Positions 1 through 29,685 of a stretch of DNA of 64,000 bases are shown here, in pieces. Positions within the stretch are counted from its first letter, which is position 1. Every line of letters starts with the position of its first letter. The stretch spans positions 263,663-327,662 of the forward strand of contig CAVSIC010000039.1 of assembly GCA_963727905.1 (NCBI GenBank), in the 5' to 3' direction. This stretch comes from an uncultured Microthrixaceae bacterium (lineage in GTDB: Bacteria; Actinomycetota; Acidimicrobiia; Acidimicrobiales; VFJN01). The notes under the pieces were generated by a model. That model was not told the DNA's origin and did not search any database. It saw nothing but the letters and a program-made list of their open reading frames with translations. The translations under genes were made by a program, and so were the position numbers.

Positions 1-1674
1 CGTGTCGATGAAGGCCCCGCACGCGGCGGGCAGGCGAGACACGGCGCCGGCGACCCAGAGGAGGTGGATGCCGTGGTCCGGGCCGCGCTCGGCCAGCTCG
101 ACGAGCCGGCTGCGCTCGATGGGTGCGTCGTCCTCGACGATGACGATCACTGCCGGCACGGCACCGGCATCGGCGCCCTCGATGCCGGACCTCGTCGCTG
201 CTGCGGCGCGGTGCTCGAGCAGGTCCTCGAGATCGTTGACCAGGCGGAGCAGCGGCGCGGGCGAGGACGCCACGGTGTCTCCGGGCAGCGGGTTGTGGTC
301 GGACGTGACGTGGGGCAGCCACTTGAGCCACTCCCACTCGGCGGTCGTGGACCCGGACAGGGCCGCGCCCACCACCACCTCGCTCGAGCTGTGGAAGGCC
401 GCGAGCTCGACGACGATCGACCGCGCCATGTCCAGGGCCCGGTCGCGAGGACCCGCGACACCGATCGCCCGATGCTCGCGGAACCCGGCGACGGCCGGCA
501 CGGGCTCGACGAACGCGTGCGCATCGCGGACCGCGATCAGCTCGTCCCAGAGGTAGGGCAACGCCTTTCCACGGGACGGCAGCTTGATGGTGCTGCGCGA
601 GGGGAGCCGAGCGGTGCCGAGCCGCACCTCGAGGAACGCGCGCCGGTCGGGTCGCCGGTGCCACAGCAGGTTGTTGCGCTGGCTCACCGCCGACACCGCC
701 TCGGAGACCGCCGGGTACTCGGCGCGCCGGGACGCCACCTCGGCCGCGTTCGCCTCGGACAGCTCCGCGCCGATGGCTCCCAGCGCCTCGCGGAACAACG
801 CGATGGCCTCCTCGAGCGCCTTCTTGCCCAGCACCCGCTGCTCCAGGATGCTCCCGATCATCAGCACCGGGCTCATCGCCAGGAAGAGCACCGAGAAGAG
901 GCTCTTCGTGACGAGGTACATCACCCCACCCATCAGGATGGGGGCCACCACCGCCGCGATGGAGAAGCGAGCCTTGTCCGGCGGTGTCGGGACGTCCGGC
1001 CCCTCCAGCTCTTGACCCTCGTAGACGATGTCGAGGCGGGGCGAGCGGTTGAACTCGACGGTGGGCGCAGTCGCGGCGCCGACGACCCCACCACGACGAA
1101 CGACCCGCACGAGCGACTCGCCCAGCAGGACCGGGTCATCGGGACCGAGGATGGCGCGTGCGACGGGCTCGTCCCCGACGAGGACACCGTTGGACGAACC
1201 CAGGTCGACGATCTCGACGACGTCGGTGACGACGATGCGAGCGTGGCGGGTCGACACCATCGCGTCGTTGAGACGGACCGTGCTCTCGGCGTGCCGGCCG
1301 ATGTAGGAGACACCGGCGGGAAGCGGGAACTCCTTGCCCTTGTCCGGCCCCTCGACCACCACCAGCATCGCCGGGCCGTCAGCAACGTCGAGGTCGTGAC
1401 CCACCGGACGGCGCTTCACCACGCTCACCGTCTGGCCCGATCGGAGCCCGGCGTCGGCGACCGTGGCGTCATGCCGGATGGGCTGCTGCTTCGTGCCGTC
1501 CTGGAGCGCGAGCGTCACCCCCTCGGTCGGGATCTTCAGCGGCGCCAGCGGGTCGCGCTCGCCGATCGCCGCGGCCAGCTCGCCGACGGTGACCGTGGTG
1601 TCGACCGTGACCAGGAGATCCACGGCGGGATGCGGCTGCCCGGGCGGACGGACGAGGGTGAGCTTCAGCCTCAC
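1..1674 (-). CDS. FtsK/SpoIIIE (EccC/EssC-like) membrane ATPase, N-terminal part: ubiquitin-like (YukD/EsaB-like) domain + FHA + TM hairpin; runs off window
   Basis: Not in the ORF track (no stop in window). Manual translation from GTG at 1674 (GTGA overlap with upstream stop): VRLKLTLVRPPG..DATVADAGLRSGQTVSV; FHA IGRH..VSTRHARI..DLGSSNG; FNRSPR; two TM helices; LWHRRP..FLEVRLG; WEWLKWLPH. These are typical EccC/EssC N-terminal motifs. Confidence 0.85.
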   Translation of the reverse strand, partial: MRLKLTLVRPPGQPHPAVDLLVTVDTTVTVGELAAAIGERDPLAPLKIPTEGVTLALQDGTKQQPIRHDATVADAGLRSGQTVSVVKRRPVGHDLDVADGPAMLVVVEGPDKGKEFPLPAGVSYIGRHAESTVRLNDAMVSTRHARIVVTDVVEIVDLGSSNGVLVGDEPVARAILGPDDPVLLGESLVRVVRRGGVVGAATAPTVEFNRSPRLDIVYEGQELEGPDVPTPPDKARFSIAAVVAPILMGGVMYLVTKSLFSVLFLAMSPVLMIGSILEQRVLGKKALEEAIALFREALGAIGAELSEANAAEVASRRAEYPAVSEAVSAVSQRNNLLWHRRPDRRAFLEVRLGTARLPSRSTIKLPSRGKALPYLWDELIAVRDAHAFVEPVPAVAGFREHRAIGVAGPRDRALDMARSIVVELAAFHSSSEVVVGAALSGSTTAEWEWLKWLPHVTSDHNPLPGDTVASSPAPLLRLVNDLEDLLEHRAAAATRSGIEGADAGAVPAVIVIVEDDAPIERSRLVELAERGPDHGIHLLWVAGAVSRLPAACGAFIDT

Positions 1675-4049
1675 GGCGCGGACCTCGGTCGCAGTCGGAT
1701 CTGGGGAAGTCGCGTGACGAAGCCACGGGCACCGGCGAACGAGTCGGCCGGGATCCATCCGCCGATGAGCGACGTCGGGTTGCCGTGGAACCGCACCTTG
1801 CCGAGGAGGCTGCGGCCCGCCACCTGCTCCTTGCGATAGCCGTCGACCTGGGCCCACACCTGGTCCGCGTCGGCATCGCTCGGGTCGCCCGGGCCGAAGA
1901 TGCGCAGGTCCACCGTCGCCGCGAGCGCGGTGAGGGAGGGGTCGCCGATCAGCTGGGCCGCCTCGGCCCGGGTGAGGTCACCCGGTACAGGTCGGCCGGC
2001 GTCCCGGGCGGCGTCGAGGGCCTCGACGAAGCCAGCGGAGATCCGTCGGGCCGGCTGGCCCCGGTGCCGTCGTCGACGGCGGCGCTGGCCCTTGGCGAGC
2101 GCGAGCAGGGCCATCGGAGAAGCCACGGTCACAGCCGCCAGGCCCACCACCTTCGCCAGCATCACCAGCCAACGGATGAGGAACCCGGTCGAGCTCTCCT
2201 CGTCCGGCTCGCCCTTGTCGGTACGGGGGTTGTCGAGGTTGACGATCCGAGGCGGGGGCGTGGTGACCGCCGTCTTCGCCTCCTCGGTCTGGACCTCGTT
2301 GATCAGCACGGGCTGGGGCTCGTCCTGGGTCGTGTTGTCCCGATCGGGCGTCGGGAAGTACGGGACCCACCCGATGCCCTCGAAGTTGATCTCGACCCAG
2401 GCCTCAGCCTCGTCGCCGGTCACCACCCCTGCACCGTCGCTGAGGTGCTTCGGCTCGAACCCGACGACGACGCGCGCCGGCATGCCGAGCATCCGCGCCG
2501 CTACCGCCATCATCGCGGCGTACTGCTCGGCGTTGCCCACCGTCTTGTCCTGGACGCGGGTCTCCAGGAAGTTCCGCAGGTGGGCGAGCGAGTGACCCGG
2601 AGCGATCTTGAAGAGCCCGTCTGGGTCGTAGTACCAGTTGGCTTGGAACAGCTCCTCCAAGGCGAGCGCCCGCTCGGCGCCGTCGGTGCCCACCGCCTCG
2701 ATCTGCGTTCGGATGTCCTGGACCAGCGGATCGGGGAGCGTGTTCGGGCCGAGGCCACCCGGGTCGCCGCCGCGGAACTCCCCCGTGGTCGGCCGCGCAT
2801 CCAGGCTCCGCACGGTGGTCGAGTCGATCACACCCGTGAGCTCGACCCCGTCGCCCGCGACGAGCCCCAATGGGGTGGCGACGATGTCCGTCGCCCGGTT
2901 GAACCGGTAGGACTTCTGGAGCTCCTCGGCACGCGGCCCGGTGAAGCGCACGGAGGTCGCCGCCCCCACGGTGGGCACCCACACGCCCGTCGGGAGCGAA
3001 CCGGCGTCCTGGTCGGCCACGATCCTCACCTGCACGCGCTCACCCTCGGTGGGCGCATCGGGGATGACGGGGCCGACGTGCCGGAACACGCCAGCGGACC
3101 CCAAGGAGCGAGCATCCACCGGCGGGGCGACCGACCAGACGATCCCGTCGAAGTAGTCCATGACGGCGACACGGATCAGGCCCTTCTCCGGCAGCCCCGA
3201 CACCTCGAACAGGGGCCGATCCTTCACCGGCTCGATCAGGAACTTGCGATAGCCGACCAGGGGACTGGCGTAGTCACGCGCGTCGAACGGTGGGATGACG
3301 TCGTCCCGGAGGATCACGCGATCCGAGGAGCTGGGGGGCGCGCCCGGGAGGTGCGGGGCGACGTTCGTCGACAGTACGAGCACGGCCCCGAGCATCGCCA
3401 CCGCCGCCATCGGACGTCCCGCTCCGGTGCCACCGACGATCTGCGTCTGGCGCAGCTCGACCCGAGCGCTCACCCACGCGATCCCGACGGCAGCGAACAC
3501 GCCCCCCTGGAGCAGGAGGTTGGCGGGGGTCTTGATGCCCAGGAGCACGCTCGCGACGAGCACCACCATCGGCGGGAGCACGCACCACGGCACCGCGCTC
3601 CGCCGCCGGGCCAGGAGCATCGACAGGAACGCTCCGGCGAACGCGCACAGGTACGGCACGACGAGGACGTTGCCCTCGGTTCCCGCCGGCGCCGAGCTGG
3701 TGAGGAGGCGGGCCCACCCGTTCGCGGCGCCGTCCGCCAGGTCCGAGAAGGTGCTCGGTCCGGGGAGGATGCCGAGGAGCGCGGAGTCCGGCGTCGCGAT
3801 CCCACCCAGCACCACGAGGGTGACGATCGCGATCGCGGCCGCGACCACTGCGGGGAAGCGGTAGCGAATGACCGCCGCGGCTGCGCCGATGCCGATCGCG
3901 GCCGCGACGACACCGACCACGAGGAACTGCCAGCCACCGAACGATGTTCGGAAGCCGTACGCGCCAAGACCGACCAGCGCGACGGTGAATCCGGCGTCGG
4001 CGAGACCACGCCGGTCGAACGGGTTGGGGGCTTCGATCGCTGCCGCCAT
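1671..4049 (-). CDS. Membrane-bound transglutaminase-like (TgpA/DUF3488-type) protein, catalytic triad degenerate
   Basis: Multi-TM N-terminus; GNAEQYAAMMAVAARMLGMPARVVVGF...AEAWVEINFEGIGWVPYFPTP matches the transglutaminase-core pattern; lies next to DUF58 and MoxR. Confidence 0.88.
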   Translation of the reverse strand: MAAAIEAPNPFDRRGLADAGFTVALVGLGAYGFRTSFGGWQFLVVGVVAAAIGIGAAAAVIRYRFPAVVAAAIAIVTLVVLGGIATPDSALLGILPGPSTFSDLADGAANGWARLLTSSAPAGTEGNVLVVPYLCAFAGAFLSMLLARRRSAVPWCVLPPMVVLVASVLLGIKTPANLLLQGGVFAAVGIAWVSARVELRQTQIVGGTGAGRPMAAVAMLGAVLVLSTNVAPHLPGAPPSSSDRVILRDDVIPPFDARDYASPLVGYRKFLIEPVKDRPLFEVSGLPEKGLIRVAVMDYFDGIVWSVAPPVDARSLGSAGVFRHVGPVIPDAPTEGERVQVRIVADQDAGSLPTGVWVPTVGAATSVRFTGPRAEELQKSYRFNRATDIVATPLGLVAGDGVELTGVIDSTTVRSLDARPTTGEFRGGDPGGLGPNTLPDPLVQDIRTQIEAVGTDGAERALALEELFQANWYYDPDGLFKIAPGHSLAHLRNFLETRVQDKTVGNAEQYAAMMAVAARMLGMPARVVVGFEPKHLSDGAGVVTGDEAEAWVEINFEGIGWVPYFPTPDRDNTTQDEPQPVLINEVQTEEAKTAVTTPPPRIVNLDNPRTDKGEPDEESSTGFLIRWLVMLAKVVGLAAVTVASPMALLALAKGQRRRRRRHRGQPARRISAGFVEALDAARDAGRPVPGDLTRAEAAQLIGDPSLTALAATVDLRIFGPGDPSDADADQVWAQVDGYRKEQVAGRSLLGKVRFHGNPTSLIGGWIPADSFAGARGFVTRLPQIRLRPRSAP

Positions 4050-5350
4050 CAGCCGACCGCCACCGCCCCGAGCCGTGCCGCAAGGTCACGCGGCTCACGA
4101 ATGGTCAGGAGCTGCAGGTCGCGCACCGTCCGGACCTCCGGCTCGGCGACCGGGTCGATCCGCACCACCAGGACGCGGAGGTGCGACGGGAGCCACGACG
4201 AGGCCGAGCGGAGGTCAGCGATGCCGGCCCGGCTCCCAGTGACCAACACCGCGATGCTCGCCGCGGCCAGCGGGTGACGAGCGCGGCGGGCGACGGTCTC
4301 GATGCCGTCGCCGTCGGCCTCCAGCTCGACCGCGCTCAGGGCATCGAGCAGCTGCGTGCGGCCACGGCCCGCCACTGCGGTCGCGCCGTGGATCGAAGTG
4401 ACCTGCTGGCCGAGCTGGAGGGAGCTGACCCCGAGCGACCCGATCGTGGAGACGGCGACCTCGAACTCGTCCTCGTTCGCGTAGTCCGCCGCCCGTGTCG
4501 ACAGGATCAGCCCGAGATGGGCCCGCCGGGTGTCGACGTACTGGCGGACCATGAGCTTCCCGGTGCGCGCGGATGTGCGCCAGTGGATGCTGCGACGGTC
4601 GTCCCCCGGTACGTACTCGCGCAAGGTGTGAAAGGCGATGTCAGCGGGCGACAGGTCGTTCGTCGTCATGCCCTCGAGGTCCCGCATCCACCCCGCCGCG
4701 GCCCCGGGCAGCAGGTCGATCTTCGGGTGGACGATGAGGTCCATCGCGTCGCACCACACGACCTCCCGCCGCGCCAGGCCGAGCGGGTCGCCGCGCACCG
4801 AGCTCACGGGGCCCACGGGGATCACGGCTCGACGGTTGGTCGGGATGACGAACGGCTCGACGAACTCCGCGCCGTGGCCCAGGGTCGGCGGCGACAGCCG
4901 GGCCAGGCCGTCCCTTCCCACCGGCACCTCGAGCACGACGCCGAGCACCTGGCGGGCGCCCGTGTTGCGCACCCGCAGGCGCGCGATCGCCGGCTCTCCG
5001 ACGGTGACGCGCTGGGGATCGAGCTCGAGCTCCACCTCGAGCGCTGAGCGACCGAGGGTGAACAGCAGCGCGGCCACCACCATCAGCAGGCAGGCCGTCG
5101 CGAAGGTGACGAGCTCCTGCCATCCGAACTTCGACCCCACCATCCACCCCAAGACACCGAGGCCGAGCACCGCCCAGCCCGGCTCCGCGATCCGCTCGGT
5201 CACGGGACGGCTCCGCTCCCGCGCCGCCGCGCCGAACCGCGCGAGCACCGTCGTCACCTGCTGCCGGCGCCACACCGAGGTGACGGTGCGCCGGACGCTG
5301 CTGACGCGCGTGCCGAGGCGGCCGCGACGGGTGGGAACTGAGGCGCTCAC
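4049..5350 (-). CDS. DUF58 domain protein
   Basis: RGDPLGL, FHTLREYVPGDDRRSIHWRTSARTGKLMVRQY motif; GTG start at 5350 overlaps the MoxR stop. Confidence 0.9.
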   Translation of the reverse strand: MSASVPTRRGRLGTRVSSVRRTVTSVWRRQQVTTVLARFGAAARERSRPVTERIAEPGWAVLGLGVLGWMVGSKFGWQELVTFATACLLMVVAALLFTLGRSALEVELELDPQRVTVGEPAIARLRVRNTGARQVLGVVLEVPVGRDGLARLSPPTLGHGAEFVEPFVIPTNRRAVIPVGPVSSVRGDPLGLARREVVWCDAMDLIVHPKIDLLPGAAAGWMRDLEGMTTNDLSPADIAFHTLREYVPGDDRRSIHWRTSARTGKLMVRQYVDTRRAHLGLILSTRAADYANEDEFEVAVSTIGSLGVSSLQLGQQVTSIHGATAVAGRGRTQLLDALSAVELEADGDGIETVARRARHPLAAASIAVLVTGSRAGIADLRSASSWLPSHLRVLVVRIDPVAEPEVRTVRDLQLLTIREPRDLAARLGAVAVG

Positions 5351-6315
5351 GTGCCGGCGCGCTCCACCGGGGCCGGGACATCGGCGACCACGCGGGCGAG
5401 CACCTGGCTCGGGTTCAGGCCGTTGAACTCCGCGTCCGGCGTGAGGATCAGGCGGTGGCCGAACACGGGCCCGACGAGCGCCTTGACGTCGTCCGGCGCC
5501 ACGAACGTCCGGCCGGTCGATGCCGCCCACGTCTTGGCCGCCCGCACCAGTGCGAGGGCGCCGCGGACGCTCACGCCCAGCATCACGCCGTCAGCGCGAC
5601 GGGTCTCCTCCGCGAGCAGGCTCACGTAGGCGAGGACGGCGGGGTCGCAGTGCACTGTCGAGGCGAGGCCGGCCATCTCCGTCACGGTGCTGGCCGGGAC
5701 CAGCGGCTTGACCATGACCGAGCGGTCACGGGTGCCGGACTCCGCGAGCAGGCGGACCGTCGTGTTGTGGTCCGGGTAGCCGAGGCTGGTCCGCATCAGG
5801 AACCGGTCGAGCTGGGCCTCGGGGAGGCGGTACGTCCCGGCCTGCTCGATCGGGTTCTGGGTGGCGAGCACCATGAAGGGCGGCCCGACCTTGTGCGGGA
5901 TGCCGTCGACGGTGATCTGGCCCTCCTCCATCACCTCGAGCAGCGCCGACTGCGTCTTGGGGGAGGCCCGGTTGATCTCGTCCGCCAACACGATCGTGGC
6001 GAAGATCGGCCCGGGCTTGAAGTCGAAGTCCCCGGTCTGCTGGTTGTAGATCGACACCCCGATGACGTCGGTGGGCAGCAGGTCCGGCGTGAACTGGATG
6101 CGGCTCGAGGAGCCCTGCACCGTGTTCGAGATCGCCTTCGCCAACGACGTCTTGCCGGTGCCCGGAGCATCCTCCAGCAGCAGGTGACCCTCGGACAGCA
6201 GGCACGTGAGCGCGAGCCGCACCACCGCGGTCTTGCCCACCACCGCCTGTTCGACGTTGGCCACGAGGCTGTTGAAGGTCTGGGAGAACCAGCCCGCCTG
6301 TTCTGAAGTGATCAT
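5347..6315 (-). CDS. moxR: MoxR-family AAA+ ATPase
   Basis: GHLLLEDAPGTGKT, RIQFTPDLLPTD, LADEINRASPKTQSALLE, ATQNPIEQAGTYRLPEAQLDRF. Confidence 0.95.
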   Translation of the reverse strand: MITSEQAGWFSQTFNSLVANVEQAVVGKTAVVRLALTCLLSEGHLLLEDAPGTGKTSLAKAISNTVQGSSSRIQFTPDLLPTDVIGVSIYNQQTGDFDFKPGPIFATIVLADEINRASPKTQSALLEVMEEGQITVDGIPHKVGPPFMVLATQNPIEQAGTYRLPEAQLDRFLMRTSLGYPDHNTTVRLLAESGTRDRSVMVKPLVPASTVTEMAGLASTVHCDPAVLAYVSLLAEETRRADGVMLGVSVRGALALVRAAKTWAASTGRTFVAPDDVKALVGPVFGHRLILTPDAEFNGLNPSQVLARVVADVPAPVERAGT

Positions 6316-6367
6316 CGATCGCTCTCGTTCCTGAGGGTTGCTGACATTTCGATCCGGCGTGCGCCGG

Positions 6368-6790
6368 TCACCACTCGAGGTGGTTCGACTCGATACCGCC
6401 GACGACGGCCCACACGTGCGAACCGGGGAAACCGAAGGCGTACGCGGTGACGTTCTCGCCGTCCCGGACCTCGACCACCCCGGTGAGGCCCTGGCCCCAG
6501 TCCGTCGTGGTCTCGCCGCACTCGTCGCAGTGCAGTTGCGCCGAGTGCGGGCCCCTTCCGAACCCGCTCAGCTCCACAACGATCGCCCCACACTCGGTGG
6601 AGGTGCACCCTGCGGGGTTCAGTTGGCTACCTCGCGACACTGCGACCGAGCGCTCCGCAGCCGCGGGGCCTGTCGACGAGGTCGCCGAGGATCCTCGATC
6701 CTCAGATCCAGAGTCCTCACTGCACGCCGCACCAAGAACCAGGATCGCAGCGAGACCGACCGCCACGACCCGACGAGTCATCGCCGCCAT
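6368..6790 (-). CDS. Lipoprotein carrying a paralogue of the adhesin C-terminal 4-Cys tip domain
   Basis: Signal peptide with lipobox-like LGAAC; mature domain aligns by eye to the last ~90 aa of the upstream adhesin (NPxGC..C..GF..CxxCG..WG..VWAVVxGxESNH). Confidence 0.75.
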   Translation of the reverse strand: MAAMTRRVVAVGLAAILVLGAACSEDSGSEDRGSSATSSTGPAAAERSVAVSRGSQLNPAGCTSTECGAIVVELSGFGRGPHSAQLHCDECGETTTDWGQGLTGVVEVRDGENVTAYAFGFPGSHVWAVVGGIESNHLEW

Positions 6791-6792
6791 CG

Positions 6793-9700: not shown

Positions 9701-12700
9701 GCCGTCTGCCCGACGTCGTCGCGAATCCGGTAGCGGACGACGACCTTGTCGCCTGGCTTCGCGGAGTCCGACACCCGGACGAGGATGACACCGGTCCCCG
9801 GCCGGACCTCACGAACCTCACGGACGCCTTCGCGGAGCTCCGGAGCGTCGACCAGCTCGATGTCGTCGCCGTCGGGGTCGTTGTCGTTGGCCACCACGTT
9901 GGCCTCGAGGGTCTTGCCCGGGACCGCGGTGAGGTGGTCGGTGACGGCCACCGGCGGGCTGTTGGTGTTGCTCGGCACCACGGCGATCCGGACGATGCCG
10001 CGGCCCTCCAGGCCCTCGGGGTCGCGGACCGTGTAGGCGAACTCGTCGGAGCCCACCGTGGAGGGCACGTACCAGAGGGTGTTGGGCGCCACCTGGATGT
10101 CCTCGCCCTCGCGCAGCCCCCGTTCGTAGGTCAGGTGCTCACGCCGCGCATCGAGCACGAACCCCCTGTCGTCGATCGCAGGGAGCGTCCCGTGCTGCGG
10201 GGCGCTGGCGACGCCGACGAGCGACACCACGTCGCCGTCCGGATCCGCCCCCACCACCGGGATCTGCACCGGGATCGGCCGCCCCACCGACGTCCGCACC
10301 TCAAGGACCGGCGGCAGCGGTGCCTGGTTGTCGCGCGCCACCACGCTGACGTGGACCTCGGCCCCGCCGCGGTTCCCGCGGGTGTCGATCGTGGTGTAGC
10401 CGACGTCGAAGCTGACCGGCGTCTCCGGGGCGACGATGCGGACGACGTCGCCCTGGACGAAGGCCGTGCCCTCCGGGCACGGGTCACCCTGGCGGGTCCG
10501 GCACGGGAGATCCCCGACCGCGCCCCCGCGGCGGCGTCCGCGCTCGGCGGGGCGAGGATCAGCGGCCCGCCCTCGGGGTCGAGGTCGTTGTCGAGCACCC
10601 GAACCGCGGCCACCCGACCGGGGCGGATCACGAGCTCATCGTCGGCGGCGATGGGCGGTTGGTCCTGGGCCCGGTCGATCCCTCGCACCACGACCGCACC
10701 GAGCACCGGCGCCGTCGTGCCATCGGTGACGTCGTACCGGAACACCAGCGGTTCGTCGCGCGGGATGGCGCGCCGGGCGGTGACCCGGAGGTACTGCCGC
10801 TTGAGGACCTCGACCTCGACGCCCGCCGCCCGTAGGACCTCGCGCGAGCCGGGGTCGACCCCCGTCACGGCAAGCACGTCGCCGTCAGGATCGGAGTCGT
10901 TGGAGAGCACCGGGATCACGACCGGCACGTCGACGGCGACCGCCGCGTTGTCGCGCGCCGCGGTCGGGGATCGACCCTCACCGGCCGACACGATCAACCG
11001 GATCGTCCCCTCCCCAGAGGCGCCAGTGTCCTCGTCGACGGCGGTGTACTTCACGCTGTAGGTCCCCGGCTGCGCGGCGACGAACCGCACCTCCTCGTTC
11101 GACCGGTCGCGGACCTGGAGGGAGCCGGCGTTCGAGCCCTCGGCCGTCACGGAGGCGACGCGAAGCGTCCCGGACGGCGACAGGTCGTTGCCCAGCGGTC
11201 GCACGGTGAGCTGCTGGTCCGCCTGGCCCAATGCGACGTCGTCGCGAGCGACGACCACGGCCTTGTCCTCGACCGTGAGGATGAGCTGACCCGTGGCCTC
11301 GGCACCGAGGTCATCGACGATCTTGTAGTTGACGGTCTTGGGGCCGAGGTCGAGCCCCGCCCGGACCGTGATGATGCCGTCGGGCCGGTGCTGCGGGGTC
11401 GAGAGGGTGCCGTCGTCCGTGGTCGCGTCGACCAGGGAGAGCCCGTCGCCGTCCTCGTCCTGGTCGTTGGCGAGCACGTTCACGACCGCCGTGCCGTTCT
11501 TCGAGATGGTGATCCGGTCCTCGACGGCCCGCGGCACCCGGTTCTCGCCATCGAGCTTCAGGATCGTGACGGTGACCTCTCCCGTCGCTGTCCGCTCGGT
11601 CCCGTCGCTCACGGTGTACGTGAAGCTGCGGGTCGGCGGCCCGGACGGGCCGGGGTCGAACTCGATGCTCTGGCCGTTGAGCCCGACGGAGGCCGTGCCG
11701 GCGGAGGGCTGGCTCACCTCCCTGACGTAGATCGCGCCGGGCGCGGAGGCCAGCGCCGGGATGCTCCGCGGTCGGCCCTCGCGGGCGGAGATGTTGATGG
11801 GGTTGGCCTTCAGGTCCTTGTTGGAGTCCGCCGTGGTCGTGCGCTTCTCCCCCTCCTCGGGGTTCTCCGCCTGCTCCTCCGGTCGGACGGTCAGTGCGTC
11901 GATCCAGGCCTTGTCCACCGACTTCGGCGGCTTGCTGTCCATGATGAGCGCGGCACCATTGCCCAGGTCGTTGAGGGTGATCCGGTCGTGGTTGACCCGG
12001 AACTTGAGCCGGCCCCCGCTACCGAACGAGCTCGGCACCGGGTCTTGCCGGTCGCACGCACCGACGGCCCGGCCGGGCTTCTCCCACGCGCCGTAGCTAC
12101 AGCCCTTGAGCCGCACCGGCTCGATGGGCGACTTCGCCTCGTCTTGCACGTAGGCCCAGTCGGCGTCCCCACCACCGAGCGGCACGTTCACCAGCCCGCC
12201 GTCGGTCGCCACGGCCACCGTGTCGGCGTCGCCCGCGGGCTGCTGGAGGATCGCGTCCTCGCCGAAGGCCCCGAGGTCGACGCTCCGACCCCCCACGACG
12301 AGCAAGCGGCGGGTGGTCCGGTCGAGCACCACCGACCTCGACCCCGCGGCCGTGATGCTGAGCTCGGCGGCGGGATCCACGTCGATCTTGCGATCGCTGC
12401 GCTTCGACCCGTCCGCGTCGTAGGTCCGCACGTGGTCTCCATCGACGACGTGCACGGTCCCGTCCGTGCCCACCGCCATCCGGGCTGCCTCGGACACCTC
12501 GCCCGCGGGCTTGCCCTCGAATCCACCGGACTGGAAGCCATTGGCGGGGACGACGTGCAGGGCTCGTGACTCCGGGTCGAGGAGCGCGAGCGTGCCTCCG
12601 CCGAGACCGATGTCGACGCCCTCGCCACTGGGGAGGGCGGCCTTGACCGGCGGGCGGGACGGATCAGCGACGTCGACGCTCGTGAGACTGCCGGCGCCTC

Positions 12701-12977
12701 GAACGAACACGGTTCGGCCCGCCTGCAGGATGTCGGGGCCCTGCTCGACGTCGAGCTTGGTGTCGACCTGCCCGACCTCCATGTTGAGACGACCGACGCT
12801 CGAGGTCGTCGGCCCGCCCGTGGCCGAGAGCGTGGTCTTGGTGATCCAGATGCCCGCGTCGTTCAGGTCGACCTTGGTCTGGCGGTAGCCGTCCGAGGTC
12901 AGGACGACGATCGCGCCGGCGACCACGGCGAAGGCGATGACGACACATGAGAGCGCTCGCCGCGCACCGCCACTCAT
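6793..12977 (-). CDS. Giant surface adhesin (N-terminal anchor, propeller-like region, tandem Ig-like Big_9/cadherin-like repeats, 5 FN3 domains, Cys-rich tip); split by a frameshift near 10525
   Basis: ORF 10131..13037 (start ATG 12977) and ORF 6793..10344 join across a G5 run at 10523-10527; repeated PxAxDD..VLxNDxDPDGD units; FN3 patterns (WSAP..YEV..LKNGTTYHFEVRA). Confidence 0.85.
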
Positions 12978-13064
12978 CCGTCCACGTCCCGCCCGCACAT
13001 CTCGGCCACCCTCGCAGCACGGCGACGCGCGCTGCAACGGGGAGCACTCCCCCGAAAAGAGCCG

Positions 13065-14087
13065 TCAGTCTCGCACAAGGCGGGCCCAGCGATCACCGAA
13101 TCGCACCGTGCAGCCAGGGGTGACCGGGTACCGCCGGCCGGGGTGCACGTTGGTCGATCTCCCGTCCGGCAGCTCGAGCGACGTGCCGTTGGTCGAGGAG
13201 AGGTCCTCGAGCCACACGCCATCCGGCTCGACCAGGACGCGGAAGTGGCTCTTGGAGATCGTCCGCTCCCGGTCGTCCACCGGGATCGGGGTCCCCAGGG
13301 ACGGATCGGGGTGCCGCCCCACGACGATGGAGGCCGCGACCCGGTGGCGATCACCGGTGTCGAGCTCGAGCACGACCCGGGTCGTGGGCGCCGGGGCGGC
13401 GGGACCGCGCCGCGCCGCCCGGTAGGTCTGGTCGTCTACGGGGGTGACCGGCCCATCGTCGACCCGCTGCCTCGTGCCGTCATCCACCCGCTGCCGGGTT
13501 CCCTCGTCCACCGGCGGCGGGAGGTGACGGAGAGCCGGCCGGGTCGGACCGTCGACCACGAGAGGTGGTGATGCAACCGCACCGGGTGCCCCAGGGCTGG
13601 CGGAGGTCGCCCGGTGCCAGCGGCTGGCCCCCAGATCCGACCGCAGGCGGGCCATCGCGGCAGCCGGGACCGTGCCGACGACGGTGACCCGGGCGCCGGT
13701 GGGCGACTCCTCGATCGACACGTAGCACTCCTCTGTCCGGCGGAACAGCAGCGACGGGAGCGCAACCCCGAGGGTGACCACCGAAGCCAGACCCCCGCCC
13801 ACCGTCACCTGAAGCGGCCGCACGGCGCGTGCGTACCGGTAGCGCCCAGGGCCCACGGTCGCCTGGGCGCAGCCCGCGTCAACCAGGACCCCTGCGACGC
13901 GCGACTCCGTCTCCGACGCCGCCGGGCCTCGCACGGTGAACGTCTCCCGCACCCGGATGCCGCGCTCCCGACGGGCCCGCTCCCGCAAGTCGTCGGCTCG
14001 GCCTCGGAGCGCCGTTACCCCCGACCGCGCTGAGGCCAGAGCGCTCCGCCCGCGCTCCGTCGTCCCTGCCGCCCGCACTGCGCTCAT
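13065..14087 (-). CDS. Membrane-associated FHA domain protein
   Basis: C-terminal FHA VGRHP..ISKSH..DLSSTNG; hydrophobic hairpin in the N-terminal part; ATG overlaps the kinase stop. Confidence 0.8.
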   Translation of the reverse strand: MSAVRAAGTTERGRSALASARSGVTALRGRADDLRERARRERGIRVRETFTVRGPAASETESRVAGVLVDAGCAQATVGPGRYRYARAVRPLQVTVGGGLASVVTLGVALPSLLFRRTEECYVSIEESPTGARVTVVGTVPAAAMARLRSDLGASRWHRATSASPGAPGAVASPPLVVDGPTRPALRHLPPPVDEGTRQRVDDGTRQRVDDGPVTPVDDQTYRAARRGPAAPAPTTRVVLELDTGDRHRVAASIVVGRHPDPSLGTPIPVDDRERTISKSHFRVLVEPDGVWLEDLSSTNGTSLELPDGRSTNVHPGRRYPVTPGCTVRFGDRWARLVRD

Positions 14088-15631
14088 CAGCCCTCCCCGC
14101 TCAGACACCGTCGCGCTGGCGACGGACGTAGGTACCCCTCCAGGAACGCCTCCACCTCGGCGCACTGGAGCGACTCGTCGTGGACGACCAGCTCGCGGTC
14201 CCCGGTGACCTCCTCGTGCTCGCCGACATCGTCGGTGTAGGTCACGTGGTATTGGGTCCCTGCCGGGTTGGCCGAATCCGCCCAGGCCACCCGGACGACG
14301 GTCCCCTCCCGGGTGAGGGTCACGTCGGAGACCGGCTCGAGCACTGCGCTCAGCTGGTTCGTGCCCGTCGTGGACGTCGTGTCGTCACCCGTCGGGTCCT
14401 CGCTGCCCCCCAGGATCGAGGCGGCGGCGACGGCGACGACCGCCGCGATCACGAGCACTCCGGCAACGATGCGGGTCTTCGACGATGTCGAGGACGGAGC
14501 GACGGTCGCCTCGGCCGGCTCGGGCGCCTGGGCGCGTCGCCGGCCCGCCGTCTGGGTCTGGAGCTCGAGCCCGTCCGGGAGGTGGGCCCCTCGGGTGCCG
14601 GTGTGGGCGTCGGGCACGTCGAAGCGCTCGACGCTTGGCTCGAACGGGGCCGCCGAGGGCCGGGGCTGGCTCGTCGACCGATCCGGGGACACGACCTGGA
14701 TCTGGGCACGCGTGCCGTCGGGATCGTCCGTCTGACGGGGCTTGGCGTCGCCCTCGGTCCCGATCGTGCCGTCGAAGAAGTCCGTCGGGCGGTAGCCGAG
14801 GCTGCGCTCCACCTCCTGGATCGCCCGGGCCAGCGCCGCGGCTGACTGGGGGCGCGACCGCGGCTGGCGGGCGAGCGCGTACTGGAGGAGCGCCTCGAGG
14901 CCGTCGGGCACGCCGGGCTTGCCCGTGGACGGCGGGGTGGACGCCCGCATCCGGCTGAGGAGGCCCTCCTGGCTGTTGTCCCCGCCTCGAACCTCGTAGG
15001 GGCTCCGGCCGGCGACCAGCGCGTACAGGGTGGCGCCCAGGGAGTACAGGTCGGAGGTCTCGTCACCGGGGGCGTCCGAGAACAGCACCTCCGGCGCCGC
15101 GTACGGCACGGACACGCCGGCGCCCTCGTCGAGCTCCGACCCGCGACGCTCCCCCGCGATGCCGAAGTCGATCAGCACGGGCTCCTTGCTGGCCCGCACG
15201 AGGATGTTCGCCGGCTTGATGTCCCGATGGAGGATCCCGGAACGGTGGGCGGCGGCGACCGCTCCGCACACCTTGACGCCGATCCGGAGCGCCTCGTCGA
15301 CAGGCAGGCCGTTCGGACGGCAGCGCTGGCCCAGGTGCGGCGGCGGGCAGTACTCCATCACCATGTAGGCGCGGCCGTCGTCGCTCACGCTCGCCGCCGA
15401 GATGCGGACGATGTTCGGGTGCTCCCCGAGACCGGCAAGCCGGTTGGCCTCGTTGATGAAGTCCTGTTCGAGCGTGGCGCTGCGCTGGCGCAGGACCTTC
15501 ACCGCCACGCGCTGGCGGGGGAACTCCTGCTCGTAGAGGTACACGTCGGCGAAGCCGCCGCTGGCGAGGAACTCCTGGAACGCCAGGTTCGGCAGCCGAG
15601 GCGGCGGGGCGGGATCGCGGAGACCAGGCAC
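14087..15631 (-). CDS. Hanks-type Ser/Thr protein kinase, transmembrane
   Basis: ASGGFADVY, VAVK, HRDIKPANIL, DFG, YAAPE; TM helix followed by a small extracellular domain. Confidence 0.93.
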   Translation of the reverse strand: MPGLRDPAPPPRLPNLAFQEFLASGGFADVYLYEQEFPRQRVAVKVLRQRSATLEQDFINEANRLAGLGEHPNIVRISAASVSDDGRAYMVMEYCPPPHLGQRCRPNGLPVDEALRIGVKVCGAVAAAHRSGILHRDIKPANILVRASKEPVLIDFGIAGERRGSELDEGAGVSVPYAAPEVLFSDAPGDETSDLYSLGATLYALVAGRSPYEVRGGDNSQEGLLSRMRASTPPSTGKPGVPDGLEALLQYALARQPRSRPQSAAALARAIQEVERSLGYRPTDFFDGTIGTEGDAKPRQTDDPDGTRAQIQVVSPDRSTSQPRPSAAPFEPSVERFDVPDAHTGTRGAHLPDGLELQTQTAGRRRAQAPEPAEATVAPSSTSSKTRIVAGVLVIAAVVAVAAASILGGSEDPTGDDTTSTTGTNQLSAVLEPVSDVTLTREGTVVRVAWADSANPAGTQYHVTYTDDVGEHEEVTGDRELVVHDESLQCAEVEAFLEGYLRPSPARRCLSGEG

Positions 15632-15633
15632 GG

Positions 15634-17010
15634 TCAGCCCACCGGCGGGGCGAGATCGAAGGTGACGGAGCCGCCCAGCACCACGCGCACGCCCGGGGCG
15701 ATCACGTGCGGCTCGTGGGCCCGGAGCCGGATCGGGTCCTCGCCGGGGGCCTCCACCACGGTCCCGTTGGTCGAACCGAGGTCGGTGACCGCGATCTGCC
15801 AGTCCTCAACGGTCAGCTCGACGTGCGAGCGGGACACCGACGACTCGGGGTCGTCCACGGCCACCAGCCCGAAGTCGGAGGTGCGATCGGTGGCGGACGG
15901 GCGGCGGCCGATCAACAGCGAGCGGTCGAGCTCGACCGACTTCCCGCTGTCGAAGCGGAGGACGCTGAGCACCGGCCGCGGCGCCCACACCACCGACCGG
16001 TCGACGATGGCAGACCCGCACACCCGGCACGCAGCCGCGGCGGGGTGGCTCAGGTGCCCGAGCGGGCACGACACCGCCTGCACCTGCGGTCCGCTCGCCG
16101 GCTCGTCCGGTGCCCCGGAGGCGGTCGGCGCAGGCGCGTCAGGCGCCGGGGAAGACCACGCTGGCGGAGGCTCGGATACGGGAGCGACGGGAGCGCTCGG
16201 GGCGGCGGGGAGCGACGGGCCCCCCACGAGCGGCGGGGGCGTCCAGGTCCCGGGCGCGGACGGAGGCGGATCAGCGAACCCGCTCGAAGGCGCCGGCGTC
16301 GGAGCGGGCGGCGAGGCCTCCCAAGCCGGCTCGGGCACCGCCACCGAGCCGAAGTCGTCCTCCGGCTCGACGGCCGCGGTCTCCCGCACGGCCGCCGCCT
16401 CCACGCCGCGGTGCTGCGTGCCCTCGACCAGGTGGGCGAAGTCGAACTCGCCGGTCGGGGGGCCGTCGAGCCGTGGAGGCGGGTCCCACGACGGAACCGG
16501 CGCGGGCGCCGGCGCCACCCGCGCGGCAGGGACCGCCGGCACCTCGAAGCTCGGCTCCGGGTCGCGGAAGGCCTGCGTCCCGAGGTGCTCCGCGGCCGCA
16601 GCGACCGGCTCGGGTCCGAGGAAGAACGTGATCCGGACGTCTCCGCCGGGGCCTGGGCACCCCAGCTCGACCTCGGAGGGCGCGTCCACGACGAGCTCGC
16701 GCAACGTGGGGCCCGTGCCCTCCAGCCGATGGCTCTGCCCGTCCGTCGCCGTGATCGAGGCCCAGGCGCCGCCGCGAGCCAGGGCTCGCACGCCGTCCGG
16801 ATCCACGCGCACGTAGCCAGAGAACGCCGCGTCACCGCAGCCGAGCGCGAGCTCCGCGATGGACGGGCCGGCAGGCCCCCCGGTGCGCACGGCGCGCCCG
16901 AGCGCGCTGGCGACGGCCGCGTCGTGCCCGGCGCCCAGGAGCACGGCCGCATCCGGGCCCACGAGGGTCACCGGTCCATCGGCCATCCGCCCGTGCGGCA
17001 GCCCGCTCAT
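15634..17010 (-). CDS. FHA domain protein with Zn-ribbon and Pro-rich linker
   Basis: CPLGH..CRVCG; FHA IGRRP..VSRSH..DLGSTNG. Confidence 0.85.
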   Translation of the reverse strand: MSGLPHGRMADGPVTLVGPDAAVLLGAGHDAAVASALGRAVRTGGPAGPSIAELALGCGDAAFSGYVRVDPDGVRALARGGAWASITATDGQSHRLEGTGPTLRELVVDAPSEVELGCPGPGGDVRITFFLGPEPVAAAAEHLGTQAFRDPEPSFEVPAVPAARVAPAPAPVPSWDPPPRLDGPPTGEFDFAHLVEGTQHRGVEAAAVRETAAVEPEDDFGSVAVPEPAWEASPPAPTPAPSSGFADPPPSAPGTWTPPPLVGGPSLPAAPSAPVAPVSEPPPAWSSPAPDAPAPTASGAPDEPASGPQVQAVSCPLGHLSHPAAAACRVCGSAIVDRSVVWAPRPVLSVLRFDSGKSVELDRSLLIGRRPSATDRTSDFGLVAVDDPESSVSRSHVELTVEDWQIAVTDLGSTNGTVVEAPGEDPIRLRAHEPHVIAPGVRVVLGGSVTFDLAPPVG

Positions 17011-17073
17011 CCCCAGGTGCTCCGCCGCACGGCAGCACAGTAGCCGTCACCGTGCGTGGCCGATCCGAGCCGT

Positions 17074-17838
17074 TCAGCCGTCATCGTCGGCCGGCTCGCC
17101 GTCGAGGAGCGCGAGGTCCTCGTGGGTGACGAGCCGGACGGCGATGGCGTACTCGACGAGGCGGCCGCGCCGGTCCGACGCAAGCCGGTCCGGCCCGCCG
17201 TGGAGCCCTCGAACGCCCGCCTTCGTCAGCTTCTGGCACACGTTGTCGAGCTTGCGGTTGAACTTCGTGAGGGCCCAGCCGAGACGGGCGGCGGCCTCGG
17301 CCGACGTCGGCACGTGGGCTCGGCCGCTCGAGTGCGGCAGGAGGGCCGGCTCGGCGAGGGCGACCACGAGGAGCTTCTGCTCGGTCGTCAGCATCACCCG
17401 CCCGAGCGTCGTGTCGCCGGCCTCCGAGGCGGCGTCGATGCCCGGGCTGAACGGGGCCTGCTCGAGGTGGAGCACCAGCTCGTAGGCGGTGGGCCCGGCG
17501 GTGAACCGCACGTGCATCACCTCGAAGATGATCGGCAGGTGCGCGCCGGGCGCGAGCCAGCCCTGGAACAGCCCGGTGCCTTCCGACGTGGTGGCGGAGA
17601 GCTGCGTCCCAAGGTTGGCGAGCCACCACATGCCGTCGTGGTGCCGGACCTCGAGGAACCGCCGGTGGAGGTACGGATTGTCGTCGACGACCAGATCCGC
17701 GTCGCGGCCGATGGTGAACGGCTCGTCCCGCGACAGCTCGAACCACTCGCCGCAGAACTCGAGGCGGAGGGACGACCGGACCTCGACCGGGAGGTCGTCG
17801 CCCACGATCACCTCGTCCAGGTCGGTGTCGTCACTCAT
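17074..17838 (-). CDS. Degenerate FHA + C-terminal HTH-like protein (putative regulator)
   Basis: Starts MSDDTDL overlapping the PP2C stop; FTIGRDADLVVDDNPYLHRRF (FHA-like); PTSAEAAARLGWALTKFNRKLDNVCQKL (HTH-like). Confidence 0.7.
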   Translation of the reverse strand: MSDDTDLDEVIVGDDLPVEVRSSLRLEFCGEWFELSRDEPFTIGRDADLVVDDNPYLHRRFLEVRHHDGMWWLANLGTQLSATTSEGTGLFQGWLAPGAHLPIIFEVMHVRFTAGPTAYELVLHLEQAPFSPGIDAASEAGDTTLGRVMLTTEQKLLVVALAEPALLPHSSGRAHVPTSAEAAARLGWALTKFNRKLDNVCQKLTKAGVRGLHGGPDRLASDRRGRLVEYAIAVRLVTHEDLALLDGEPADDDG

Positions 17839-18653
17839 CCGTCGCCCTCCCGGGGATTGGTGTCCTCGTCCGCCGCGCCGATCGGGGCGATGCCTCGCGG
17901 GTTCGTGTCCTCGGCCGCGCCATCGAGGTCGGCCGAGCCCTCGATCGTGGCGACGACCACCGAGACGTTGTCGTGAGCACCGGCCTCGAGCGCGAGCGCG
18001 ACCAGCGCGTCCGCCTTCTCCTGCGGAGATCCGTCGGAGGCGAGGACGCCGCGGAGGACGTCGTCGCGCAGCTCGTCGGTGAGCCCGTCGGAGCACATGA
18101 GGTACGTGGTGCCCGTGGCGGGGTCGTCGGTCCACAGGTCCACCTCGAGCGGGCCCTCCATGCCGAGCCCGCGCGTCACCACGTTGCGCGACGGGTGGGA
18201 GAACGCGTCGTCGGCGGTGATCTCCCCGTCGCGCACCATCTCGGCGACCAGCGAGTGGTCGACGGTCACCTGGGTGAGGTCGGACCCCTTGGCGCGATAG
18301 GTCCGGGAGTCGCCGACGTTGAAGATCATCACGACGTCCTGCCCGTGCTGGCACCCGAGGACCAGCCCCGTGACCGTGGTGCCCATCCCCTCCCTGCCGG
18401 ACCCCGGCTCGGCGTCCTGGAGGATGTCCGCGTTGGCACGGCGCACCGCGTCGACCACCTCGTCGAGGCACGGCGTCCGCTCGATGCCCTCCAGGGCGCG
18501 CACCGCGAGCGCGCTTGCGACCTCGCCGGCCGCATGGCCACCCATGCCGTCCGCCACTGCGAACACCACGGGACCTGCCAGCACCGCGTCCTGGTTCGAG
18601 CGTCGGACGCACCCCACGTGGGTCGCCGAGCCCCATCGGACCTCGATCGCCAA
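17835..18653 (-). CDS. PP2C-family Ser/Thr phosphatase
   Basis: RRSNQD, VADGMGGH, GMGTT, NVGDSR, CSDGL, GAHDNVS. Confidence 0.95.
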   Translation of the reverse strand: MAIEVRWGSATHVGCVRRSNQDAVLAGPVVFAVADGMGGHAAGEVASALAVRALEGIERTPCLDEVVDAVRRANADILQDAEPGSGREGMGTTVTGLVLGCQHGQDVVMIFNVGDSRTYRAKGSDLTQVTVDHSLVAEMVRDGEITADDAFSHPSRNVVTRGLGMEGPLEVDLWTDDPATGTTYLMCSDGLTDELRDDVLRGVLASDGSPQEKADALVALALEAGAHDNVSVVVATIEGSADLDGAAEDTNPRGIAPIGAADEDTNPREGDG

Positions 18654-18800
18654 CCGTCCTCCTCATCCGCCGGCCGTGGAGGGACCCTACGCGCGGCCCG
18701 CACGACGGTCTACGGACGCGACCGGGGAGTTCTCCCCGGTCGCGTCGCCGGGGGACCCCTCCCCATTGTCCGGTTGGTCCGGGTCGGAGATGGTGCCGAC

Positions 18801-19469: not shown

Positions 19470-19570
19470 CGAACGGCACCTCCGCGAAAAGCGCAAGGTC
19501 GGCCCCGTACGGGACCTCCTACTGGCGTCCAGCGGGAACCGCCCGCCGGCAGCACCAAGGAGATCCACTC

Positions 19571-20245: not shown

Positions 20246-20300
20246 CTCGTCCAGCAGGCACTCGGTTCGAGCCACCCGCTCAGGCTCACCGAGCGAGGCA

Positions 20301-20336
20301 GCCGCCCCCTCCCCCCGTTCCAGGGGAGGGGGCGGC
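20301..20336. terminator. GC-rich hairpin downstream of the LPKTG gene
   Basis: gccgccccctcccc-N8-ggggagggggcggc, 14-bp perfect stem. Confidence 0.6.
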
Positions 20337-20404
20337 GCCGCGTCGACATGCTGGCTGCGGCTCGGGCGCACTCCGGCTAGCCCTCGCCCGCGTATGGTCC
20401 CGGG

Positions 20405-29499: not shown

Positions 29500-29533
29500 C
29501 GCGACTCCCCTGGCAGGACGACAAATCCGGTGG

Positions 29534-29555
29534 ATCGTACCCCGCGCGGTACTGC
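29534..29555 (-). promoter_or_regulatory. Candidate promoter element GCAGTAC-N9-TACGAT
   Basis: -10-like TACGAT; same architecture found upstream of paralogue B. Confidence 0.4.
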
Positions 29556-29629
29556 GCGCGGTACAACCCTCGGGCCAGAGTTATCCCCAGATTTCTGGGG
29601 ATTCCCCGGGCCGATCTGGGCCGAGAACG

Positions 29630-29663
29630 ACGAACGCCCCGCCGTTGCCGGCGGGGCGTTCGT
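29630..29663 (-). terminator. Intrinsic terminator after repeat protein B
   Basis: acgaacgccccgccg-ttgc-cggcggggcgttcgt, 15-bp stem. Confidence 0.7.
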
Positions 29664-29685
29664 GGCTGGCTCAGTGAGCCAGATC

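Follow-up and report, generated by a model that had tools for sequence, protein, structure and literature searches.

A probable Esr-type surface-sensing pathway within a minimal T7SSd-like type VII locus of an uncultured Microthrixaceae bacterium

A 64,000-nt stretch of the genome of an uncultured Microthrixaceae bacterium (GenBank assembly GCA_963727905.1, contig CAVSIC010000039.1, positions 263,663 to 327,662; hereafter the window, whose numbering we use) carries at positions 1-18653 eleven genes, all on the minus strand, for a PP2C phosphatase, a membrane Ser/Thr kinase, FHA-domain proteins, a very large surface protein, a lipoprotein, a MoxR ATPase, a DUF58 protein, a transglutaminase and the first part of a type VII-like ATPase (Table 1). 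The window is 72% G+C, and genes were picked by third-position G+C (GC3) and reading frame before any family search; assignments were then made with Pfam and NCBIfam profiles and a Kyte-Doolittle scan for hydrophobic segments. An earlier reading made from the letters alone (the sequence-only reading) had listed eleven co-oriented genes with these domain types, and GC3 frame analysis, Pfam and NCBIfam bear this out. It had also described many 1-4 bp overlaps between the genes. Such stop/start overlaps are present at five of the ten junctions, the others being 2-nt gaps (two junctions) or gaps of 27-87 nt (three). The overlap is ATGA between the phosphatase stop and the ATG start of the gene for an FHA and helix-turn-helix (HTH) protein, TGATG between the kinase stop and the ATG at 14087 of the next FHA gene, GTGA between the MoxR stop and the DUF58 GTG start at 5350, TGATG between the DUF58 stop and the transglutaminase ATG, and GTGA between the transglutaminase stop and the ATPase GTG start at 1674. 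These shared codons suggest translational coupling of neighbouring genes.

Table 1. Genes of the cluster in window numbering, with the evidence for each assignment (TM, transmembrane; ORF, open reading frame; names refer to the Esr, T7SSd and PFNA systems compared in the text)
Feature	Position	Strand	Evidence
PP2C Ser/Thr phosphatase, EsrF-like/prpC-like	17835..18653	-	Pfam PP2C_2; NCBIfam Stp1_PP2C_phos
FHA + LuxR/GerE-like helix-turn-helix protein, 254 aa, unnamed family	17074..17838	-	AlphaFold2, Foldseek, VIA-align, hhalign
EsrG-like output protein: N-domain, Pro-rich disordered linker, Cys motif, C-terminal FHA	15634..17010	-	Pfam FHA
Membrane Ser/Thr kinase, EsrE/TsdD/Pkb2-like, one TM helix, ~108-aa outer domain	14087..15631	-	Pkinase
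FHA protein, one weakly hydrophobic segment (possible TM helix)	13065..14087	-	Pfam FHA
EsrA/TsdI/FN3-like surface protein, ~2060 aa, in two ORFs	6793..12977	-	Pfam, AlphaFold2
Lipoprotein, 140 aa, domain copies the surface protein's C-terminal domain	6368..6790	-	BLASTP
MoxR AAA+ ATPase	5347..6315	-	AAA_3 E 4e-61, AAA_lid_2, bpMoxR E 4e-11
DUF58 protein, taken as counterpart of the Esr vWA partner of MoxR	4049..5350	-	DUF58 E 3e-10
Polytopic membrane transglutaminase, EsrD/Tgm-like	1671..4049	-	TgpA_N + Transglut_core; six hydrophobic helices
EssC/EccC/TsdC-like ATPase gene, 5' part: probable ubiquitin-like domain, FHA, two TM helices	1..1674	-	FHA, EssC and EccCa models

The set includes a Ser/Thr kinase, a PP2C phosphatase and several proteins with FHA domains, which bind phosphothreonine. 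The phosphatase scored 212 bits against the NCBIfam model Stp1_PP2C_phos (cut-off 230, E 6e-63), and its DGMGG, SDG and D..N columns are invariant in 10 orthologues. The kinase matched Pkinase at E 6e-39, has HRD, DFG and APE motifs (read by eye) and has its TM helix at residues 388-406. In the EsrG-like protein, the Pfam FHA domain spans residues 367-446, and the sequence shows GR, SRSH and STNG; the N-domain of this protein is common to FHA proteins of five related loci (L003, L005, L006, L008 and L017; here and below, L001 and L002 are the stretches left of the window, L003 upward are related loci, and G numbers are other genomes). The arrangement of N-domain, Pro-rich linker and C-terminal FHA recurs in a second protein of this genome, at L001 12090-13388. 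The FHA protein at 13065-14087 carries its Pfam FHA domain at residues 280-357 of the long ORF, and its hydrophobic segment is just over the cut-off.

The largest gene reads as two overlapping ORFs in this assembly, with a frame change near 10540-10570, inside an Ig-like repeat. We take the two ORFs as one gene of ~2060 aa because full-length homologues are about 2000 aa long and always carry the N-terminal 374-residue domain at their N-terminus; the ~2000-aa adhesin of the sequence-only reading is therefore there as one large gene, although not as one open frame. A hydrophobic signal or anchor at the N-terminus is followed by a beta-propeller, Big_9/cadherin-like repeats, four fn3 domains and a Cys-rich C-terminal domain. 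The propeller assignment comes from an AlphaFold2 model of the N-terminal domain (pLDDT 87, pTM 0.83), for which propellers accounted for 50 of the 50 Foldseek matches listed. An exhaustive search with the N-terminal 374 residues gave 472 clusters, at near lengths, a word-indexed search for this domain gave two proteins only, and an atlas search with the N-terminal part gave only fragments of the same kind of protein. The protein ends in ...NHQGGW, with no sorting-signal tail (no LPXTG anchor), and the Kyte-Doolittle scan found no hydrophobic helix in its C-terminal 1254 residues.

Two bases downstream of the surface-protein gene begins the gene for the lipoprotein, which has a signal peptide of the form ...LGAAC and a domain 45% identical to the surface protein's C-terminus over 116 aa (BLASTP, E 7e-25). 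It had been called a 'tip-copy' lipoprotein: it is indeed a copy of a surface-protein domain, but the copied domain is the C-terminal end, and 'tip' was that reading's own word. An analogous lipoprotein that copies the C-terminus of its own surface protein occurs in L017, from an uncultured Actinomycetes metagenome-assembled genome (MAG); in the Microbacterium locus L008 the surface-protein frame extends almost to the MoxR start, and no separate small gene was read. A search for lipoprotein homologues at near lengths found only the protein itself. Complex prediction for the lipoprotein domain with the C-terminal 110 residues of the surface protein scored 0.00 twice, with an uncertain partner fold, and counts neither way. 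From its sequence, the lipoprotein may form a base in the membrane on which the filament is received, and the beta-propeller would then be the distal end. In L017 (a long-read MAG), the MoxR start and the surface-protein/lipoprotein end seem to occur twice in tandem at 4300-5500, which is either a duplication or an assembly artefact.

The EccC/EssC-like FtsK gene named in the sequence-only reading is present, but the window covers only its N-terminal ~560 residues; the gene runs on to the left as far as ~5214 in L002, in changing frames. Its best NCBIfam models are EssC (E 4e-32) and EccCa (E 9e-29), and its FHA domain matches at E 7e-11. Ten orthologues align from the start codon that here overlaps the transglutaminase stop, and the phosphothreonine-binding GR, SxxH and SxNG of the FHA domain are invariant in all ten. 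Intact orthologues combine the FHA domain with three P-loop regions; two TM helices are found in the window gene. In six relatives (L005, L007, L008, L010, L012 and L013) the ATPase is one open frame of 1462-1699 codons, and the nearest relative, from an uncultured Actinomycetes MAG, is 59% identical. Residues 1-95 gave only sub-threshold matches, most of which, including the best, are to ubiquitin-like families: with Pfam, TmoB in two of ten members (best 1.3e-5), YukD (0.12), ubiquitin (0.16) and OTU1-UBXL (0.27), and in a profile search of the PDB, a redesigned ubiquitin (E 0.1) and ISG15 (0.46). The ATPase probably starts with a ubiquitin-like domain of ~95 residues.

Frameshift-aware alignment of the ATPase gene to two orthologues placed about ten single-base frame changes at L002 7561-6152, with all parts of the protein present. 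We compared these sites with contigs of three soil-metagenome runs that are 90-99% alike, have a depth of 2.5-5.2 each and may be other strains. Four predicted extra-base sites (~7068, ~6920, ~6461 and ~6352-6370) match single-base omissions in these contigs at 7070, 6939, 6466 and 6352. No contig bridges the predicted missing-base sites (7275, 7186, 6741 and 6152), and several alignments end at 7183-7189 and 7273-7284. The frame breaks in the ATPase and surface-protein genes look like assembly indels, with a recent true pseudogene as the rival explanation.

The sequence-only reading had pointed to the DNA left of position 1 for the remaining ATPase domains and for WXG100 genes, and both ATPase domains and WXG100-like genes are present there. 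Downstream of the ATPase gene are a 90-aa ORF with a WEG motif (WXG100 26.0 bits, cut-off 27.3, E 1.2e-5) and two longer paralogues with WXG100-like heads, one of which has a frame break near the head. These two paralogues, at L002 1434-4490, have heads ~75% alike by eye over ~60 residues and unrelated C-terminal parts that match no family; the ORF between them ends in what reads as the displaced head of the second gene, a sign of a frame break and possibly of an effector/immunity arrangement. Further left are the second EsrG-like FHA protein, two DUF2510 proteins and a second kinase (L001 8249-9601), after which come dnaK-grpE-dnaJ-hspR. EccB (PF05108) had no match at E <= 0.1 in the whole 72%-complete MAG, and YukD (PF08817) had none above threshold, with one weak match away from this locus (E 0.02). 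We saw no clear candidate for a TsdH-like small single-TM protein; the nearby genes with a hydrophobic segment are those of the FHA protein at 13065-14087 and of one DUF2510 protein. PADLOC reported no known defence system, only generic kinase models, one weak PP2C match and one P-loop match.

The 254-aa protein encoded next to the phosphatase has no Pfam match at any threshold. Its AlphaFold2 model, built from 36 homologues (pLDDT 86), has an N-terminal FHA fold, supported by Foldseek (best match Rv1747 FHA-1, 6ccd, E 1e-5) and by VIA-align (Z up to 12.7); the matches listed in a wide VIA-align search were all to this FHA domain. In the family alignment, the Gly-Arg, His and Asn of the pocket are kept and the Ser is not. 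The five-helix C-terminal domain matched a profile of GerE, a LuxR-type HTH, at an hhalign probability of 81.6% (E 1.1e-5, 44 columns); the profile was built from 14 GerE domains of the same genome, and two unrelated control pairs gave 0.13% and 0.15%. The family comprises at least 3853 proteins (8000 candidates scored). Among the 120 homologues listed, none carries a precomputed Pfam domain, and 'hypothetical protein' is the only name given; Pfam searches with each of 36 family members gave only two stray matches above E 0.1, and the family alignment had 0 matches to PDB sequences at E <= 10. We found the gene in 28 of 401 genomes drawn from the class, this genome included, among them 9 of 9 genomes of one family and 8 of 45 of another. 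Within the order, 4 of 16 other families have the gene and 0 of 24 same-genus genomes do. Some genomes of one family (G185, G200, G363, G377 and G419) have three to five copies, and each of the nine genomes sampled from that family has the gene.

The sequence-only reading had named linkage of the FtsK gene with the adhesin and kinase genes in other genomes as a check. The ATPase gene is linked to the kinase, phosphatase and FHA genes in several families, often with the MoxR, DUF58, transglutaminase and surface-protein genes as well. We examined 73 loci seeded with the ATPase, ten of which match from residue 131 or earlier, by tblastn with the window proteins (E < 1e-6). PP2C, kinase and FHA genes are nearby in four (L003, L005, L006 and L008), PP2C and FHA genes in L017, kinase and FHA genes in L010, and MoxR-DUF58-transglutaminase in L008 and L017. 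From 17 of the genomes that carry the FHA-HTH gene we took 20 loci, with a kinase within 10 kb in 15, PP2C in 8, and MoxR and DUF58 together in 5; 10 of the 20 have an EccC-like gene in the same cluster, which in three came into view only after four loci had been extended. Two genomes, G161 and G357, hold all components of the window, G161 in almost the same order. At least five families of the order show the linkage, and their gene orders differ, a pattern that speaks for selection on the linkage rather than for inheritance of a single arrangement.

From dnaK to a histidine-phosphatase gene (window 20405), the distance is ~34 kb here and 70 bp, ~0.8 kb, ~6 kb and ~7 kb in four same-genus genomes. 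The site is thus a variable one, into which the whole cluster, second kinase to PP2C gene, has been inserted. At the variable junction (window 20096-20400 on one side and, left of the window on contig C39, -13800 on the other; compared in L082-L085), G022 has 70 bp and G006 ~0.8 kb; G017 and G019 have 6-7 kb of other DNA, which in G017 includes an epimerase and two histidine kinases. No sequencing run reached one half of the sampled words; 0.11, 0.10 and 0.06 were the highest shares, all in runs labelled soil metagenomes, and no RNA evidence was found among the runs. These labels would fit a life in soil, although we name no habitat with confidence. Between the PP2C gene and the junction, 18654-20400 has no secure annotation: the ORF at 18687-19568 on the minus strand matches no family and its codon bias is ambiguous, a plus-strand gene is likely at 19466-20245 (GC3 0.92-1.0), and tblastx of 18640-20420 against the related loci gave composition-driven noise only. 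Elsewhere in the window, three large minus-strand frames at 25260-34155 (820, 678 and 1489 aa, stop to stop, picked by GC3) match no Pfam family at E 1e-5 and possibly belong to one or more very large repetitive proteins, in a stretch where the AT skew is strong (about -0.22) and the GC skew positive; at 45522-48065, also on the minus strand, the replicative helicase DnaB is split by an intein (DnaB, Intein_splicing and DnaB_C).

The closest described counterpart is Esr (epibiont sensing and response) of Schaalia odontolytica (Wang et al., bioRxiv 9 Sept 2026, PMC13622651). As set out in the main text of that preprint, Esr comprises a propeller-tipped Ig-repeat filament and the transglutaminase by which it is retained, together with MoxR, a vWA protein, kinases, a phosphatase and an FHA output protein. 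Of 3502 Esr pathways, 40% adjoin esx genes, and fusions of EsrG to EccC are reported. Secretion of some substrates requires the Esx-linked Esr2, AesA/AesB secretion being lost in an esrA2 mutant, and Thr phosphorylation of EsrG1 depends on EsrA (PMC13622651). The locus shares with Esr, as described there, the exported Ig-like filament with an N-terminal beta-propeller and no LPXTG anchor, MoxR with a vWA-type partner, the transglutaminase, Ser/Thr kinase(s), a PP2C phosphatase, an FHA output protein made of an N-domain, a disordered linker and a C-terminal FHA, esx adjacency and an FHA domain on EccC. This likeness rests on domain content and folds, not on sequence comparison with the Schaalia proteins. 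Unlike Esr, the locus comes from a soil MAG and lies in a stretch that same-genus genomes do not have at this site; it has four fn3 domains, a Cys-rich C-terminal domain copied in a neighbouring lipoprotein and an extra FHA and LuxR-like HTH protein, and EccB was not found in the 72%-complete genome. The preprint's main text does not use the terms HTH, helix-turn-helix, lipoprotein or ubiquitin. The Esr partner of MoxR is a vWA protein, and that of the window is a DUF58 protein, a family that we take to be vWA-like.

Two further systems contain parts of the same set. T7SSd of Actinomycetota (TsdA, TsdC, TsdD, TsdH, TsdI; Garrett, Higginson and Palmer 2024, PMC11217815) is described as an FHA-EssC protein with an intact phosphothreonine pocket, a kinase, a WXG100 protein and an Ig-like protein of ~1650 aa, with phospho-control proposed for the FHA-bearing TsdC. 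In keeping with that description, the locus has an EssC-like ATPase whose N-terminal FHA keeps the phosphothreonine-binding residues, a membrane Ser/Thr kinase, a candidate WXG100 protein (the sub-threshold 90-aa ORF left of the window), a very large Sec-exported Ig-like protein and no separate ubiquitin-like protein. The C-terminal TM helix of TsdI was not found on the window's large protein, on which a signal and Ig-like domains are present. Those authors report no ubiquitin-like component, and MoxR, DUF58 and transglutaminase have 0 occurrences in their main text (PMC11217815). Judged from sequence matches, the predicted ubiquitin-like start of the ATPase may be this 'absent' EsaB/YukD component, fused to the motor, which would account for the 'missing' TsxB of T7SSd. 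The PFNA operon of Bifidobacterium, according to the main text of a review, has a core of pkb2, fn3, aaa-atp, duf58 and tgm, with prpC and fha as accessory genes (PMC8430577). The comparison with PFNA drawn in the sequence-only reading is apt at the level of domain content, since all seven domain types stand in one co-oriented cluster here. PFNA is, however, read as sensing host cytokines, with no secretion ATPase or WXG genes discussed, and FtsK, type VII and WXG do not occur in the review's main text; the window's fn3 protein is also far larger than that of PFNA and starts with a beta-propeller.

More distant likenesses are to systems with other outputs. MoxR-vWA-beta-propeller ternary conflict systems (Kaur, Burroughs, Iyer and Aravind 2020, PMC7159879, as cited by the Esr preprint) share the MoxR, the vWA-type partner and the propeller sensor. 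The window's MoxR, however, scores 205 bits with the general AAA_3 model and 43 bits with bpMoxR, its propeller heads a 2000-aa filament, and the output would be a kinase/FHA relay to secretion rather than an effector toxin domain. The sequence-only reading had also named the PpkA, PppA and Fha1 proteins as a loose analogy. In Pseudomonas type VI secretion, the membrane kinase PpkA and the PP2C phosphatase PppA set the phosphothreonine state, which the FHA protein Fha1 reads to switch the machine on. The logic is alike and the secretion machine unrelated; in the window, unlike in that system, an FHA domain is within the motor ATPase and a MoxR/DUF58/transglutaminase/surface-filament module lies upstream. 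None of the PFNA, T7SSd and Esr main texts uses the others' key terms, and in a full-text search only the Wang preprint (PMC13622651) held MoxR, transglutaminase, FHA, EccC and WXG100 together.

These comparisons lead us to the following model, in which the order of signalling and the effect on secretion are taken from the Schaalia literature. The ~2060-aa protein would be exported and would display its N-terminal beta-propeller on an Ig-like/fn3 stalk, fixed at the surface by the membrane transglutaminase. MoxR and the DUF58 protein would relay engagement of the propeller to the membrane Ser/Thr kinase, with the PP2C phosphatase resetting the signal. FHA proteins would then read phosphothreonine, with two outputs. 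The first would be the FHA domain that is part of the EssC/EccC-like ATPase and that would control, for the WXG100-like protein and the two longer WXG-headed proteins, either assembly or the choice of substrate; the second would be the FHA and LuxR-like HTH protein, altering transcription. The FHA-HTH protein, whose family has a Ser/Thr kinase as neighbour in 15 of 20 loci, may be the missing link from Esr-type threonine phosphorylation to transcription: its variant pocket, without the usual Ser, may read a phosphorylated partner, and the protein may bind DNA. We infer by analogy that the source organism uses the system as Schaalia does.

We estimate a probability of roughly 0.8 that the locus is an Esr-type cell-surface sensing pathway within a minimal T7SSd-like type VII locus, in a ~34-kb stretch absent at this site from four same-genus genomes. 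What the sequences themselves show is gene content, domain folds, stop/start overlaps and conserved linkage. Several results count on the other side. The N-domain of the EsrG-like protein has no similarity to a PP2C profile (hhalign 0.8%), and the label 'pseudophosphatase', which the preprint gives to the N-terminal domain of EsrG, was not reproduced; the three WXG100 matches are all under the Pfam cut-off; and with its ~ten frame changes in the ATPase gene and one in the surface-protein gene, the system as assembled could be dead in this strain. Furthermore, the window queries found no Esr-type genes beside the FHA-EccC gene in four Leucobacter loci (L007, L009, L011 and L012), and half of the FHA-HTH loci have no EccC-like gene in view, so the linkage between Esr-type and FHA-EccC genes is frequent but not obligate. 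The Leucobacter loci also favour mere adjacency, in which a generic MoxR-DUF58-transglutaminase module with its own kinase signalling would sit beside an unrelated type VII secretion locus in one horizontally acquired stretch, with no functional coupling. Locus L087, cut by a contig end, likewise has MoxR-DUF58-transglutaminase with no EccC-like gene in view, and the Esr preprint places only 40% of the pathways beside esx genes. Against adjacency stand the GTGA overlap of the transglutaminase stop with the ATPase start, the recurrence of the linkage in at least five families with different gene orders, the intact phosphothreonine pocket on the ATPase itself and the genetics published for Esr2 (PMC13622651), and we regard it as quite unlikely. 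The coupling of a surface receptor through a kinase/phosphatase/FHA switch to a type VII-like ATPase, as the sequence-only reading had it, is supported by gene context, linkage and the GTGA overlap. Its further statement that such coupling was not mechanistically described is out of date, given Esr (PMC13622651) and the proposal of phospho-control for TsdC (PMC11217815): a coupling of this kind is real but no longer new, having been shown experimentally in another genus.

The frame breaks raise a different alternative, that in this strain the locus is a decayed, non-functional remnant, with true pseudogenes for the ATPase, the surface protein and one or more of the WXG-headed proteins. Besides the breaks in the ATPase and surface-protein genes and the one near the head of the third WXG gene, the absence of the FHA-HTH marker from all 24 same-genus genomes means that nothing shows selection to keep the locus in the genus. 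We nevertheless consider decay unlikely. GC3 remains high in all pieces, which are still 30-67% identical to intact orthologues and lack large deletions; the four predicted extra-base sites coincide with omissions in the soil contigs, which may be other strains; and same-genus assemblies contain similarly split genes, such as an Fe-S gene of G006 in four pieces. Sensing of a host signal, as proposed for PFNA, would have the fn3 protein bind a host factor such as a cytokine and the kinase report it, and the domain set (kinase, fn3, AAA ATPase, DUF58, transglutaminase, PP2C and FHA) is the same. However, near-identical DNA was found only in soil-labelled metagenome runs, at small word shares, which makes an animal host unlikely; FtsK, type VII and WXG are absent from the main text of the PFNA review (PMC8430577); and the sensing end is a beta-propeller, as described for EsrA. 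We therefore give host sensing very little credence. FtsK/SpoIIIE-type ATPases drive conjugation in actinomycetes, and since the locus is a strain-specific insertion of ~34 kb, the FtsK-like protein might instead be the DNA translocase of a conjugative element rather than a secretion ATPase. This is the least credible of the alternatives: EssC and EccCa are the NCBIfam models that fit it best, its orthologues carry three P-loop regions behind two TM helices, WXG100-like genes directly follow, and general family scans found no integrase, relaxase or replication family among the genes scanned.

If the Esr-type, type VII-linked reading is correct, an Esr-Esx arrangement worked out in oral Schaalia would also occur as a strain-specific insertion in what appears to be a soil actinobacterium, and one locus would unite parts described piecemeal in the PFNA, T7SSd and Esr literatures. 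Three of its parts offer leads, from computation only, beyond the literature we found. For the questions that the Esr preprint (PMC13622651) itself names in its main text, the FHA-HTH family is a candidate for the step from phosphorylation to transcription, the ATPase FHA with the probable ubiquitin-like domain are candidates for how the pathway acts on EccC, and the paralogous lipoprotein is a candidate for filament attachment. That all three parts together fill gaps left in print, the FHA-HTH protein as transcription link, the ubiquitin-like domain as EsaB/YukD and the lipoprotein as filament base, is a tentative and, taken jointly, rather doubtful proposal. For genome annotation, the FHA-HTH proteins form a very large family still without a Pfam model or a name, and we flag it here as one that may connect Esr-type sensing at the cell surface to gene expression.

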